Shown: piece by piece, positions 22,870 to 62,176 of the stretch
How positions within the stretch are numbered: the stretch's first letter is position 1
Layout of the letters: each line of letters starts with the position of its first letter
NCBI GenBank assembly: GCA_951406725.2
Contig: OX597843.1
Span: 19,034,001 to 19,098,000, forward strand
DNA: 64,000 bases
Direction: 5' to 3'
Source of the DNA: Octopus vulgaris
Lineage: Eukaryota
Made by a program: the position numbers and the translations under genes
Notes under the pieces: generated by a model
What the model saw: only the letters and a program-made list of their open reading frames with translations
The model's database searches: none
Told to the model about the DNA's origin: nothing

Positions 22870-23057
22870 ATGTTTCCCCGCGTAGTATCATATGTGCAAA
22901 CGTTTGTATTGATACTGTGTTCGATATTGGTTTTGGAGGCTCAAGCTGTTTCATATATATGCAAGATATGTACTTGCTACGGACCTACAAAGGTATATTG
23001 TAAATATCGCCAATTAACATCAGTCCCACAACCGATTCCGATGGATATTGAATTGTT
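22870..23057 (+). CDS. LRR gene first coding exon: signal peptide + LRRNT cap
   Basis: MFPRVVSYVQTFVLILCSILVLEAQA-VSYICKICTCYGPTKVYCKYRQLTSVPQPIPMDIEL(L); acceptor CAG ending 22849, donor TT/GTAAGT (phase 2). Confidence 0.9.
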
Positions 23058-23488
23058 GTAAGTATTTGACGCGTATTTTCCATTTGAAATGTTTAAAATT
23101 CTCATCGATTATGTCCTCAGCGAAACACAAATGTTGTTGATCTCGCAGCTTTAAACACAATGTTATGCAGAGCAGATCCATATGTTACCTGCACTGCAGT
23201 CAAATAAACTGTTTGTTATTATATTGAATTTATTACATCGCATACACACTAATAGGATATGGCTAGTATCTGACCTTTGATGTTATTTGTCTGACCTCAT
23301 CAAATCTTGCAGAATATTCAACGAACGGACAGTCTGAAAACCTCTGTGCTAACAATACATGTGTATTTCACAGAATTATATGATTTCACTAATTAGTTGA
23401 ACTGTCGTTTAATATGATATATTATCCGTTGATCACGTTACAGAATAGTCGTTAAACATTGTTTGTATTAGTTTTTTTAATTAAAAAT

Positions 23489-23700
23489 GCAGCGAGCTGC
23501 CAGAATCGTTGTGCACGCTGGGCAAAATGTTAAGCGGTATTTCGTTCGTCTTTACGTTCCGAGTTTAAATTCTGCCACAGTCGAATTTGCTTTCATTTTT
23601 TCGTTGTCAATTAATTAAGTACCAGTTGAATACTGGGTTCGATGCAATCAACTATACCTCTCCCCAATATTTCGCGCCTTACGCCTTTGGTAGAAAGGGG
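23489..23700 (+). mobile_element. Degenerate SINE with Meta-like central domain
   Basis: GCAGCGAGCTG.CAGAATCGTT head; GTCGAATTTGCTTTCAT..TTAAGTACCAG core; related fragment at 27390-27556. Confidence 0.6.
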
Positions 23701-24179
23701 TGTAATTAATATTATAATCTTCTTCTTCTTCTTCTTCTTCTTCTTCTTCTTCTTCTTCTTCTTCTTCTTCTTCTTCTTCTTCTTCTTCTTCTTCTAGTTT
23801 TGCTGCTGCTGCTACTACTACTACTACTACTACTACTAATAATAATAATAATAATAATAATGATAATAATAATATTACTACTACTTCTACTAGATATGCT
23901 AATTTGTTATCTCATTCATCTGAATTGGGATCGGAGTCTTCTTCGTCCATTTCTTCGTTGTTATACTTCTTTTCTCTAATGTAATTCTTAAGACTAAATT
24001 TTAACAATCTATAATATTTATCTGAATTAGAATTTAGCAAAACTCTTTCATGCCACACACAGTATCAGTATTATCCTCCAAGGATAAATATTAATACTTA
24101 ATGTCCTCAAATCTTACTCTTCTTCCCACTTTATCCTTCTCTAATTCATTGTCTATCTCTCAGTGTTTGTAGCAATCTA

Positions 24180-24735
24180 TTGGGTTGTCCAGATATTTCG
24201 TGCCGATTTATAGTAGCTTACCTTTCGACTTATTTTAGAACATGGCTGAGTCCATAACATAGGATTTGACTACGCCTCTATTTAAAGCAGAGTTTAAGCT
24301 ATCTTTTCGTTGAAGAAGGTTTATGTTCCTATAACCTGTGTTAATTCTGTAACCCTTTAAAATGGAAGATAAGAAAATTCATTTTCGGTACTTGATGCTT
24401 TGGGAACCAGACAAAAATGGCTGCAGCTCGGCTGGGATGTGTTACCCTACTCTCCATATTCACCAGATATTGCTCCTTCGGGTTTCCATTTATTCAGGTA
24501 TCTGTAGAATAGTCTTAATGCTAGAAATTTCGATTCCTTGAATGACGTAAAAAGATACCTTGATGAATTCCTTCCCATGAAGCCTGGGAAGAGGGTATTT
24601 TCAAGTTAAAAGGAAGATGGAGACGCATTGTGCAACAAAATGGTTCGTATTTGGTTGATTAAAAATGTAATGACAAGTATTTATTGACCTTTTTCTTTCC
24701 TTTAAAAATTGGCACGAACTTTCCGGACAACCCAA
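24180..24735 (+). mobile_element. Internally deleted mariner element with TIRs and TA duplication
   Basis: TA-TTGGGTTGTCCAGATATTTCGTGCCGATTT ... AAATTGGCACGAACTTTCCGGACAACCCAA-TA; remnant LGWDVLPYSPYSPDIAPS.FHLFR. Confidence 0.88.
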
Positions 24736-58499: not shown

Positions 58500-58979
58500 G
58501 TATAGTTGCGACTCTCTATTCTCCATTTTCGTCTTCTTTATTGCCTTTTTCGTGTTGTTCGTCTTCGCCTCTTCAATCTTCTTCTTCGTCCCCTTTTTTA
58601 TTACTACTACCACTACTACTACTGTTACACCTATATTTACTTCTACTTCTTACTTTTACATTGCTCATGTTCTTCATATATTTCCTCTTCGTAAAATATT
58701 GTCTCAGCAATTTATTCTATTTCTGGTGCATCGGATTCTTTTCATCAACTTCGATTTTCTTAAATCTAGACGTTCTCTGATTGATTTTCCTTCAAGGTCT
58801 CCCATATTAACATCATTTTCACTTCTGTAGTGCGTCTTTTATCGTCATGTTCATTATTATCATTAGGCTTTTTCTATGTCATTTTCTATGTCATTCATCT
58901 GATTGTAAGACTAAAAATTGAATAGTTTATCTGAAAAATTTCGTTTACTCTTTCCTGTATACATTGTTTTATGTTACAG

Positions 58980-59051
58980 ATATCTCAAGAATAATACGAT
59001 CGAGAAAATCGATCGTGGACTCTTCCACGGCCTTACCAATTTACAGTTATT
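58980..59051 (+). CDS. LRR exon E' (YLKNNTIEKIDRGLFHGLTNLQLL)
   Basis: 72 nt, CAG/..TT/GTAAGT, phase 2-2. Confidence 0.93.
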
Positions 59052-62000
59052 GTAAGTTCAATTTCTCTCGATAAAATTTCATAGACGTAATATCTCTAGA
59101 AATTATATATCTTCCTTTTCTCACTCACACTGTCTGTCTGATTGTCTCTCTCTTTTTTTCTCTCTCTTTCTCTCTAACTTATTTTTGATATTTTGTGTAT
59201 AAGACTATGATTCTATGCGAATATGTATCGTTGTATGTCAGTGTTTTTGCGTATATGTTCATGATTGTTGGTGCGTCTATGTGTGTATAAGACAAAACAT
59301 AGATATTGACATATATATATATATATATATATATATATATATATATACACAAAAATATATATAAACAGGTATGTATGTGTCTTTGTGTATATGTTTATCC
59401 TCAATCGTCGCTTTAGTTCAGGTGATAGTGTTTCCGCCCTCGTAACTGGACGATTAGGCAAAAAAGACTGAGACAATAAGTAAATAACTATAAATATAGC
59501 AGCGGTGGCGATTTCTTCAACTAAACGTCTATAAATTGGTGTGCCATTATGGCCGCATTCTAATGTGTGAAATAAGTTAAAGTATTGATATATTTATGTA
59601 TGTATATTGCGACCAAGTCGGTGACTTGTGCTGATGTGGATGATCCCATCGCTGTACTACTTTATTCCATAATTTACCATCAATGTTTACCGCAAATATT
59701 ACGCCTATTTTGTGTCGGGACATACCTGTGTGTTTCATACTATAAATCAGTGCTTTATTAACAGCCATCGAATTACTTCTTGGGTATCTGATCAAGGCGC
59801 TAATTTAGTTTTGATTCAGGGCAGGCGGTATTTTATCAAGGATTTTCTTACTAATCATTCCTGTATCTGATTTAGATGGACAAACCAGTGTAACTTAGGG
59901 ATCAAATGGAATTTAGGTTTATGGACTTTAATCATAATTCAGGATTTTCTAGTGATGTAAGGCTCAGTTCTATCATCTATACCTAAATCTCAGGCGAGTT
60001 ATTGTCCTGTATTTTTAATCTATGCTAACGTGTCATTATTCACGTGTCCATATTTACCGAGCAGTTCCTTCCTAATAATATACTTATCCAACGCAATACT
60101 AAGTGTAAATTTTGCATGGTTTTCTTCACTGGAACAATGATTCCTGGAGTTTTGACGATGTCATCAATTAGTCTTTTAATAATTTTCTCTAATTTTTTGT
60201 AACTTCTAGGGTATTTCCAGAACTTCCCGTTCTTAACTGTTCCACATAATTCTTCTTCAAATCTGGTTCGGTGATGGTTGGTCGATTGGTTGTTTCTTGA
60301 TTTACATACTTTTCTTAGTCGATCTCCATGTTCAGGTTTGCCATGTCATATCTTTTCTGTCAAAGAAGAAAGCTTTCTACCGTATTCTTTGTAGGAATTG
60401 GTTGACTTAAATAATGCTTCTTACTGGGTATAGGTACGTCCTTCCTTCCTCCTTCCTTCCTTCCATCATCCTTCTTCTTCTTCTTCTTCTTCTTCTTCTT
60501 CTTCTTCTTCTTCTTCTTCTCCTCCTCCCTGTGCTTCTTCTTTTTCTTCTTGTTTTTCTTCTTCTTCTTCTTCTTCTTTGCTGTTGTTGTTGTTGTTGTT
60601 CTTCTTCTTCTTCTTCTTCTTCTTCTTCTTCCTCTTCTTTTTCTTCTTCTTCTTCTTCCCCTTCTTCTTCTTCTCCCTCTTTTTCTTCTACTTCCTCTTC
60701 CTCTTCCTCTTTTCTTCTACTTCTTCTTTTTCTTCTTTGCTGTTCTTGTTCTTGTTCTTCTTTCTTCTTATTCTTCCTCTTCTTCTCCTTCTCCTCCTCT
60801 TTGTCCTTCTTCTTCTTCTTCTTCTTCTTCTTCTTCTTCTTCTTCTTCTTCTTCTCCTTCTCCTCCTTGTGCTTCTCCTTCTTCTACTTCTTCTTCTTCT
60901 CCTCCTTGTGCTTCTCCTTCTACTTCTCCTCCTCCTTGTCCTTCTCCTTCTTCTTCTTCTTCTTCTTCTTCTTCTTCTTCTTCTCTTCCTTGTGCTTCTC
61001 CTTCTCCTTCTCCTCCTCCTTGTTCTTCTCCTTCTTCTTCTTCTTCTTCTTCTTCTTCTTCTTCTCCTTCTTCTTCTCCTTCTTCTTCTTCTTCTTCTTC
61101 TCCTTATTCTTCTCCTTCTTCTTCTTCTTCTTCTTCTTCTTCTTCTTCTTCTTCTTCTTCTCCTCCTTGTGCTTCTCCTTCTTCTTCTTCTTCTTCTTCT
61201 TCTTCTTCTTCTTCTTCTTCTTCTTCTCCCTGTGCTTCTTATCCTTCGGTATCTCATTCTTCGTAATTGTCATTGCTTTCTTCATTCTCGTTATCTCCGT
61301 CGTCTTCATTCTTCTTTTCCCTAATTTAGTTTTTAAGATTCAATATTCCCAATCTATAATATTTCTCTGAAATAGAATTGCGTATCAATACTCTTTCATG
61401 CCACAGACGTCTTCACCATTACAGTATCAGCAATATGGTCCAAGCATAATTCTAAATCCTTTTTGCTTTTCTTCTTGATTTATTCTTCTCTAATTCATTT
61501 TGTCTCACTCAATTTTTGTGTGAATGTATTTGAAAGTGTTTGAATGTATATCTTCGAAGGTATGTGTGGGTGTATCTACATCAGAGACTGATATCCTGGA
61601 CGAAATTGTATGTGTGTATGTGCATATAAGGGTATGTGTGACTGTACTATTTATATTCAAAGATATTTTCTCCTCCTTTCTGATTTTCCTTATTTTACTC
61701 ATCCTGCTTCTAATATGTGTTTCATTCCTTTTCACAATTTTTCTCTACGTGGTTCATGTTCATGTTTATGTTCATCAATTTCTGTTTCTTTCAAATTTTT
61801 CAACTGCTTTTTCATTTCTCATCTCATATTTGGTTCATCGTCTTCTTCTTGCACGTTTATAAATCTATACGATGTATGAATTATTTTCAGTCATCACCTT
61901 CCTTACCCCGCCCAGTCTGTCATTGTGTATCGCCTCTTTACTCCTCCCGCTCCCTCCTGCCTTCTGTATTCCCCTCCTCATTATCATCATTACGCATTTC

Positions 62001-62104
62001 TCTTTCACAGCCCTTCTTTTCATCAGATTTTAAGTCTACAATTTAATATTTTATCAGAAAACGTTTCTATGCTGTTTCCTTTCTAATTTGTTTTATGTGC
62101 ACAG

Positions 62105-62176
62105 AACTTTGGAGTATAATAAGATCGAGAAAATCGAACGTGGAAATTTCCTAAATCTTTACAATTTACAGAAACT
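62105..62176 (+). CDS. LRR exon A'' (TLEYNKIEKIERGNFLNLYNLQKL); gene continues beyond window
   Basis: 72 nt, CAG/..CT/GTAAGT, phase 2-2; third copy of exon A. Confidence 0.93.

Follow-up and report, generated by a model that had tools for sequence, protein, structure and literature searches.

What does a row of small, equal-sized exons in the genome of Octopus vulgaris encode, and could exons that join freely to one another diversify a receptor? The window, by which we mean the whole 64,000-nt stretch analysed (positions 19034001-19098000 of contig OX597843.1, C30 below), carries on its + strand an exon for a predicted signal peptide and leucine-rich repeat (LRR) N-terminal cap (LRRNT), followed by LRR exons of 72 nt. 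Our analysis suggests that these are the first coding exon and 11 of the 26 one-repeat LRR exons of an adhesion G-protein-coupled receptor (GPCR) gene, which probably, though by no means surely, encodes a full receptor of 1602 residues.

An earlier note on this DNA had described a signal-peptide/LRRNT exon and 11 LRR exons, and all were found over the span reported, on the + strand. The border rule it proposed also holds without exception: 11 of 11 LRR exons are exactly 72 nt long, start with A after AG, end with TT or CT before GTAAG and are free of stops. The features are as follows (window positions; LRR exons from the pattern scan, with the repeat classes A to E assigned to them).

22870..23057, + strand: first coding exon, predicted signal peptide and LRRNT, phase-2 donor; spliced to LRR exon 1 in a presumed RNA contig
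25334..25405, + strand: LRR exon 1 (class A)
26851..26922, + strand: LRR exon 2 (class B)
27617..27688, + strand: LRR exon 3 (class C)
34877..34948, + strand: LRR exon 4 (class D)
36424..36495, + strand: LRR exon 5 (class E)
48934..49005, + strand: LRR exon 6 (class A)
51644..51715, + strand: LRR exon 7 (class B)
52803..52874, + strand: LRR exon 8 (class C)
56913..56984, + strand: LRR exon 9 (class D)
58980..59051, + strand: LRR exon 10 (class E)
62105..62176, + strand: LRR exon 11 (class A)
62177..64000, + strand: intron after LRR exon 11; the gene goes on past the window end

The strict pattern AG-[A...TT/CT]-GTAAG at length 72 matches 11 times on the + strand of the window and never on the - strand, while at other lengths (60 to 89) it matches at most twice each; 200 block shuffles of the window gave a mean of 0.165 and a maximum of 2 matches, and the array is far above chance. 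The translation of the first coding exon has a hydrophobic N-terminus, judged by hydropathy only and not by a signal-peptide predictor, and its LRRNT scores slightly below the Pfam cut-off (E 4.5e-5; 23.4 bits against 25.8). An AG acceptor lies 20 nt 5' of the ATG, and a further exon of untranslated sequence is therefore implied upstream. Across the whole gene, 22 LRR exons start with A and end with TT or CT, three start with G (the Leu is kept) and the last ends with AT; all 26 have splice sites, with donors of strong consensus, in a single frame. The exons had been called interchangeable in the earlier note, and any subset of them does keep the frame; however, free joining follows automatically from equal length and symmetric phase 2, and is not itself evidence of shuffling. 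Equal-length phase-2 exons are common in LRR genes. No convincing degenerate or opposite-strand spare LRR exon was found in the window gene, the weak matches being at window position 61391 (E 0.033) and, in one case, beyond the window (E 0.32).

Extending the search downstream, as the earlier note had advised, takes the array to 26 LRR exons and then reaches the C-terminal domains:

C30:19105420, 19106602 and 19109404, + strand: LRR exons 12-14, outside the window
C30:19111559-19114328: 5' copy of a 139-bp tandem array, running into an assembly gap
C30:19438648-19445198: second copy of the 139-bp array, after another gap
C30:19445311-19476257, + strand: LRR exons 15-26, after the second array copy
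C30:19481743-19492820, + strand: LRRCT, 12-Cys (likely LU) and SEA-like exons
C30:19499926-19508870, + strand: HormR, GAIN and GPS exons
C30:19509678-19525345, + strand: seven-transmembrane (7TM) and tail exons

The 3' half lies about 324 kb from the 5' half, with an assembly gap splitting the gene. A single close relative of the first exon (97%) was found, in a sister gene at C30:18.47-18.55 Mb that is free of gaps, and genome-wide the 139-bp array has only three candidate places, namely both break ends and, in the sister, the corresponding intron. The sister is collinear with the window gene on both sides of this array: its LRR exons 1-5 are 92-97% identical to exons 1-5 of the window, and its exons 6-16 are 89-100% identical to 11 of the distant exons. 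The join of the 5' part in the window to the 3' half from C30:19438648 onward is thus based on collinearity, with no read spanning it, and is well supported because the array is confined to the break ends and the sister, which is collinear on both sides. Between the two gaps no LRR exon, LRRCT or GAIN was found.

A nearer end for the gene, the 7TM exons at C30:19130440 (some 20 kb beyond the last of the nearby LRR exons), was rejected, as a gap intervenes and the middle exons are absent; furthermore, this 7TM belongs to a seven-copy subfamily at 95-100% identity, while the first exon has a single close sister. The segment between the gaps (C30:19114329-19438647, about 324 kb) carries the final 7TM exons of another family member, whose 5' part is missing there, and the placement of this segment inside the gene is likely a scaffolding error. 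The seven near-identical 7TM exons (C31:898337, C31:984234, C31:9330835, C31:9465622, C39:79149, C30:19130440 and C30:19790842) represent either a very young subfamily or a partly duplicated assembly.

The resulting model has 46 coding exons: the first exon, 26 LRR exons, LRRCT, a 12-Cys domain, a SEA-like domain with a beta-alpha-beta-beta-alpha-beta layout, HormR, GAIN/GPS, 7TM and a short tail. It encodes 1602 residues if one T is bridged in a T-run of a GAIN exon, and contains no stop once that base is bridged. The sister has an open frame of 1386 aa with 17 LRR exons. Pfam evidence on the family was read on the O. sinensis protein P0019, which is 93.3% identical to the window gene and 97.4% to the sister, and which matches LRR, HRM (weak), GAIN (weak, E 3.6e-4, below the cut-off), GPS (E 1e-11) and 7tm_2 (E 2.9e-37); the 7TM exons themselves were mapped in the gene. 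A low-confidence model of P0019 matches the BAI3 GAIN fold (Z 12.9, root-mean-square deviation 14.3, 189 aligned) and part of the GPR126 ectodomain (Z 11.5, deviation 10.6, 191 aligned). The gene thus has the secretin-class 7TM of an adhesion GPCR and a GAIN with its GPS just before the first transmembrane helix. The family, which the earlier note left unassigned with the C-terminus beyond the window, is settled by this GAIN-GPS-7TM half, and is almost certainly that of the adhesion GPCRs. An LGR or glycoprotein-hormone receptor is ruled out by a 7TM of secretin and not rhodopsin class, a Toll-like receptor by the GAIN-7TM 3' half and the lack of TIR in Pfam scans, and Slit by the adhesion GPCR nature of the gene.

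The usual GPS cleavage consensus, common but not universal, is His-Leu|Thr/Ser. A Tyr replaces the His in the window gene, the sister and P0019, while the paralogs P0003 and P0007 keep it; because of this replacement, self-cleavage is predicted to be weak or absent, and a tethered-agonist-like sequence is retained. The 12-Cys domain starts with CxxC and ends with CCx4CN across the family, and CxxC...CCx4CN is the Cys pattern of three-finger domains. Its best PDB match is the activin receptor type-1 ectodomain (E 0.027), and Atlas gives TGF-beta receptor II and Ly6 clusters (0.75-0.79) as leads only. Pfam LU had no match at E<=1 in nine proteins, the model confidence (pLDDT) of the Cys-rich domain is about 24-52 in two AlphaFold models, and both the fold search and the wider PDB profile search were swamped by LRR matches. 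On its Cys pattern, the domain is likely a three-finger (LU) domain. A neighbouring paralog (C30:19583471-19597044, - strand) carries three tandem copies of an LU-like, Cys-rich unit made of two exons, a frame break affecting one copy, and the annotated proteins P0041, P0042 and P0083 carry two to three copies of such a unit.

The arm of the receptor is periodic. Its 25 typical LRR exons fall into five classes in the order ABCDEABCDEABCEABCDEABCDAB, and the five-exon periodicity is also seen in an exon tree and in intron self-similarity; we infer that this order reflects block duplication and single losses. The difference from the sister lies in one segment:

46094..64000, no strand assigned: in-window part of a segment absent from the sister, which holds LRR exons 6-14 overall

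This segment totals about 30.9 kb, from window position 46094 to 12,951 bases past the window end, and comprises nine LRR exons. The break in the sister is single and clean, with 3-bp microhomology at the junction; homologous unequal crossing-over was rejected as the cause, as there is only this microhomology. Loss in the sister is the simpler reading because LRR exons 6-14 have no close partner (best 78-89%). A decayed LRR exon remnant lies in a sister intron (C30:18491855-18491945, E 1.8e-5) without intact splice sites.

The earlier suggestion of an expanding LRR receptor whose copy number changes is borne out: the window gene has 26 LRR exons against 17 in the sister, a difference of one deletion, and seven family genes have 5-6, 6, 12, 17, 22, 24-25 and 26. 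It should be noted that these seven were chosen by proximity and convenience, not at random, out of at least 36, and that the ranges reflect two detection methods. In the genome there are at least 36 first-exon and at least 40 7TM-exon matches. The LRR exon-end pattern matches 388 times genome-wide against 79 for a control; among the first 100 of the 388, other dense arrays lie at C10:6.35-6.47 Mb, C2:152.19-152.22 Mb and C5:141.88-141.91 Mb, the last with exons on both strands. The protein P0032, named for O. vulgaris at NCBI, matches the sister at 100% identity along 570 residues, and the public protein for the sister covers 582 of 1386 residues. Because of that partial protein and the gap that splits the window gene, arm sizes have probably been underestimated so far. 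In the literature within reach of our search, which left out most subscription papers, no paper on LRR exon number in this receptor family was found, and the available part of the SPLASH preprint contains neither 'adhesion' nor 'LRR'. P0087 starts with the end of the window's first exon and LRR exon 1 (100% identical), whereas the rest of its body is of a different paralog type (88-92% against the gene located at C30:18.2 Mb), of which no exons were found in C30:19.00-19.54 Mb; it is either a chimeric model or a real recombinant.

Between the window gene and the sister, the ratio of non-synonymous to synonymous differences (pN/pS) is 0.45 overall and 0.36 in the LRRs. In this comparison pN reaches 0.065 at the five positions of the concave face and 0.029 at the remaining ones (p 0.03); pS across the exons is higher, at 0.111, and 0.065 is near neutral against the 4.8% divergence of collinear blocks, a figure that is biased low by an identity filter and includes exons. 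Within the gene, 12 disjoint same-class exon pairs gave a concave-face pN of 0.21 against a pS of 0.37 (p 0.002). Positive selection on the concave face was found in neither comparison. The concave face of the window gene is thus freer than the rest of the repeat, but with a pN below the synonymous rate and near neutral against block divergence it shows no clear positive selection.

Splicing was assessed from contigs of four runs (X1, X2, X4 and X12; not picked for the window gene, their RNA status a guess) aligned to exon 1 through LRR3. In X2, a contig of 365 nt (depth 4.3) joins exon 1, LRR1, LRR2 and LRR3 in genomic order at GT-AG sites, and in X12 one contig fits the normal LRR3-LRR4 joint. 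Skipping joints between exon 1 and LRR3 numbered 0 in the four runs, in which only one contig in one run bridged those exons; X1, X4 and X12 gave no contig bridging exon 1 to LRR1, and such missing cover is no evidence. Elsewhere in the family, an O. sinensis paralog has five RefSeq isoforms, each lacking one different LRR, two of these being unique in sequence and three lying in near-identical repeats. In O. vulgaris, two isoforms of one paralog differ by three LRRs. All of these are annotation models, with mis-mapping possible in the three of five cases in near-identical repeats. The other isoform pairs compared (four plus 12) differ at the ends or elsewhere and not by LRR skips. A relative of 1155 aa (LRR-GPS-7TM) is found on Logan contigs of 4.0-4.4 kb.

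These data bear on the idea of a Dscam-like variable receptor, in which regulated skipping of 26 equal exons would create many binding surfaces for immune or neuronal self-recognition. The frame is kept by any exon subset, skips are annotated in paralogs of both species, and brown-algal ROCO genes do skip LRR exons, according to the available part of PMC11378527. However, the single bridging contig is in order, the second fits an unskipped joint, all donors are strong, the concave face shows no excess over the synonymous rate, and the annotated isoforms are models; we regard such a receptor as improbable. Diversification by exon skipping, as the earlier note envisaged it, therefore stands as annotated skips in two paralogs, but the one informative contig of the window gene is in order. 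As for the variable immune receptor that the note also proposed, nothing showed an immune role or a rearrangement like that of variable lymphocyte receptors (VLRs), and no clear diversifying selection was found on the binding face.

Several observations weigh against a full receptor made from the window gene. As assembled, its frame ends at residue 1212, and the T-run of the GAIN exon at C30:19505229-19505386 has one T fewer than that of the sister. On the 3' side of this shortfall pN/pS is 0.58 (9 synonymous and 19 non-synonymous differences), too few to exclude relaxed selection. The X2 contig is mixed, with three sister-type bases yet only 4 exon-1 differences from the window gene (the sister has 8), so that it cannot be assigned to either copy and is no proof that the window copy is transcribed. 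Finally, the model of P0019 has a mean pLDDT of 45.7, and the LU and SEA assignments depend on weak matches and this low-confidence model. If the shortfall is real, the gene may produce a secreted decoy ectodomain of 1212 residues, or be a young pseudogene with degraded mRNA, while the intact sister signals; we consider this doubtful, if deserving of some weight. The decoy would hold the LRR arm, the LU-like and SEA-like domains, HormR and half of GAIN, a content about which we are equally doubtful. The greater distance of the window gene than of the sister from P0019 agrees with such a truncated copy, as do the several annotated family proteins without 7TM and a gene upstream of the sister for which 90 kb of sequence showed neither GAIN nor 7TM exons. 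On the other hand, the difference falls in a T-run within a duplicated region, and T-runs are typical long-read error sites; there is no second break in the 46 exons, splice sites are intact, and pN/pS is below 1 both before and after the shortfall. Alternatively, the two copies might be old haplotypes of one locus, with the nine-exon difference an allelic presence/absence under balancing selection. The window contig is bounded by gaps, and collinearity with the sister extends at least 50 kb upstream; but collinearity ends about 12 kb downstream, with different neighbours in gap-free DNA, and the 4.8% substitutions in collinear blocks contrast with a published heterozygosity of 1.22% (10.1101/2023.05.16.540928, seen in part), which makes this very improbable indeed. 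With 93.7% identity and a pS of 0.062, the two are most likely paralogs that predate the split of O. vulgaris and O. sinensis, dated to 2.5 million years in the available part of the same source, since the divergence, the different downstream neighbours and the fact that one copy is closer to O. sinensis than to its partner all point that way.

Returning to the full receptor, we can outline how it probably works and came about. The LRR arm would bind an extracellular partner on cells or matrix, and the signal would pass through the 7TM, probably without GPS cleavage; the one-base shortfall would be a homopolymer assembly error. The arm probably lengthened in the germ line as a block of five exons was duplicated in tandem, with a single exon lost now and then. 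Symmetric 72-nt exons allow gain and loss to be tolerated without frameshift, and so paralogs would differ in how long the arm is and how its repeats are ordered. The usual transcript probably keeps the exons in genomic order, while occasional skipping would add minor variants, and diversity would arise mainly between genes, over generations, by gain and loss of exon blocks. Because the classes recur every five units and stay conserved, the arm is likely to offer many copies of one binding surface (multivalency), or to serve as a spacer of tunable length, and not to be hypervariable.

Other features of the locus include a LINE-type element (endonuclease and reverse transcriptase) on the - strand at 38091-40846, in the LRR5-LRR6 intron, and a 29-bp minisatellite (57080-58499; 49 copies, 95% matches) in the intron 3' of LRR9. 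Upstream, mobile-element remains at 1419-2405, 7946-8899, 11843-14608 and 20743-21465 comprise an endonuclease, a reverse transcriptase, an integrase-bearing element with DUF7047 and a Tc1-type transposase.

Among vertebrate receptors, ADGRG6 (GPR126) resembles the octopus protein by its ectodomain fold match, and NCBI names octopus proteins 'G6-like', an annotation name and not a tested orthology. GPR126 likewise has the order SEA-HormR-GAIN, but also CUB and pentraxin domains, and ADGRA2/A3 (GPR124/125) likewise have an LRR arm on HormR-GAIN-7TM, but with few LRRs and an Ig domain; neither ADGRA nor GPR126 is known to have 26 LRRs or a three-finger-like domain. VLRs of lampreys and hagfish are likewise built of 24-residue LRR modules, but from an incomplete germ-line gene with flanking donor cassettes, which the window gene lacks; a VLR-type receptor was rejected, as 26 exons with splice sites stand in one frame and a spliced contig exists. 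Arthropod Dscam1 also has many similar exons in one gene, in mutually exclusive clusters, whereas the window gene showed no such clusters and has a continuous frame ending in a GPCR.

An octopus-specific expansion of adhesion GPCRs, group 3, has been described (Ritschard et al. 2019, PMC6408891). In the available part of that paper, its members resemble the window gene in GPS and adhesion 7TM, LRRs in some members, tandem clusters and an octopus-only range, and P0098, a relative found here (LRR, GPS, 7TM, Death), agrees with the single O. bimaculoides member that has a Death domain; in our search, 24 of 24 matches for residues 125-320 came from Octopus. By domain content, copy number and range, the window gene appears to belong to this group. 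The same part of the paper reports LRRs in 5 of 22 sequences and contains nothing on one repeat per exon, repeat number, block periodicity, or LU-like or SEA-like domains. It places group 3 members in axial nerve cord, suckers, skin and gills. Such sites would suit a role in wiring, touch or barrier recognition, and nothing points to immunity in particular. A three-finger domain on the extracellular part of a 7TM receptor is seen in LU-domain GPCRs of molluscs, arthropods and starfish (PMC13719153, PMC11595613), whose main texts do not contain the word octopus; a figure legend in PMC13719153 (2026) also lists LRR and GPS domains, and the exact LRR-LU-GPS-7TM layout may already be in its figures or supplements.

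The closest working analogy would be the exon shuffling of brown-algal LRR-ROCO genes, and not VLRs or Dscam. According to the parts of PMC3341825 and PMC11378527 available, each LRR of a ROCO has its own exon, paralogs have gained and lost exons, the genes are clustered and LRR exons are alternatively spliced, but ROCOs are GTPases that show diversifying selection and have spare exons on the other strand; the window gene, in contrast, is a surface GPCR with block periodicity, no convincing opposite-strand exons and no clear positive selection. The octopus family (PMC6408891), mollusc LU-domain GPCRs (PMC13719153) and brown-algal one-LRR-per-exon shuffling (PMC3341825, PMC11378527) have already been described. 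It is conceivable, if rather unlikely, that several dozen octopus LRR adhesion GPCRs are remodelled both in the germ line, where exon blocks are gained and lost, and through regulated skipping of single-repeat exons, giving a variable recognition repertoire on G-protein signalling; such two-level remodelling could be an animal counterpart of ROCO shuffling, with the 26-repeat gene a large member, a parallel we hold no more probable.

In summary, an octopus receptor expansion that was known but had been poorly annotated now provides a testable model for changes in the length of a binding arm, the pieces of which are one nine-repeat deletion between sisters, five-exon blocks and a range of 5-6 to 26 repeats over the genes counted. 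If skipping proves to be regulated, the octopus would have a variable recognition system built on GPCRs; if it is not, the family would still be a clear case of repeat evolution through symmetric exons.

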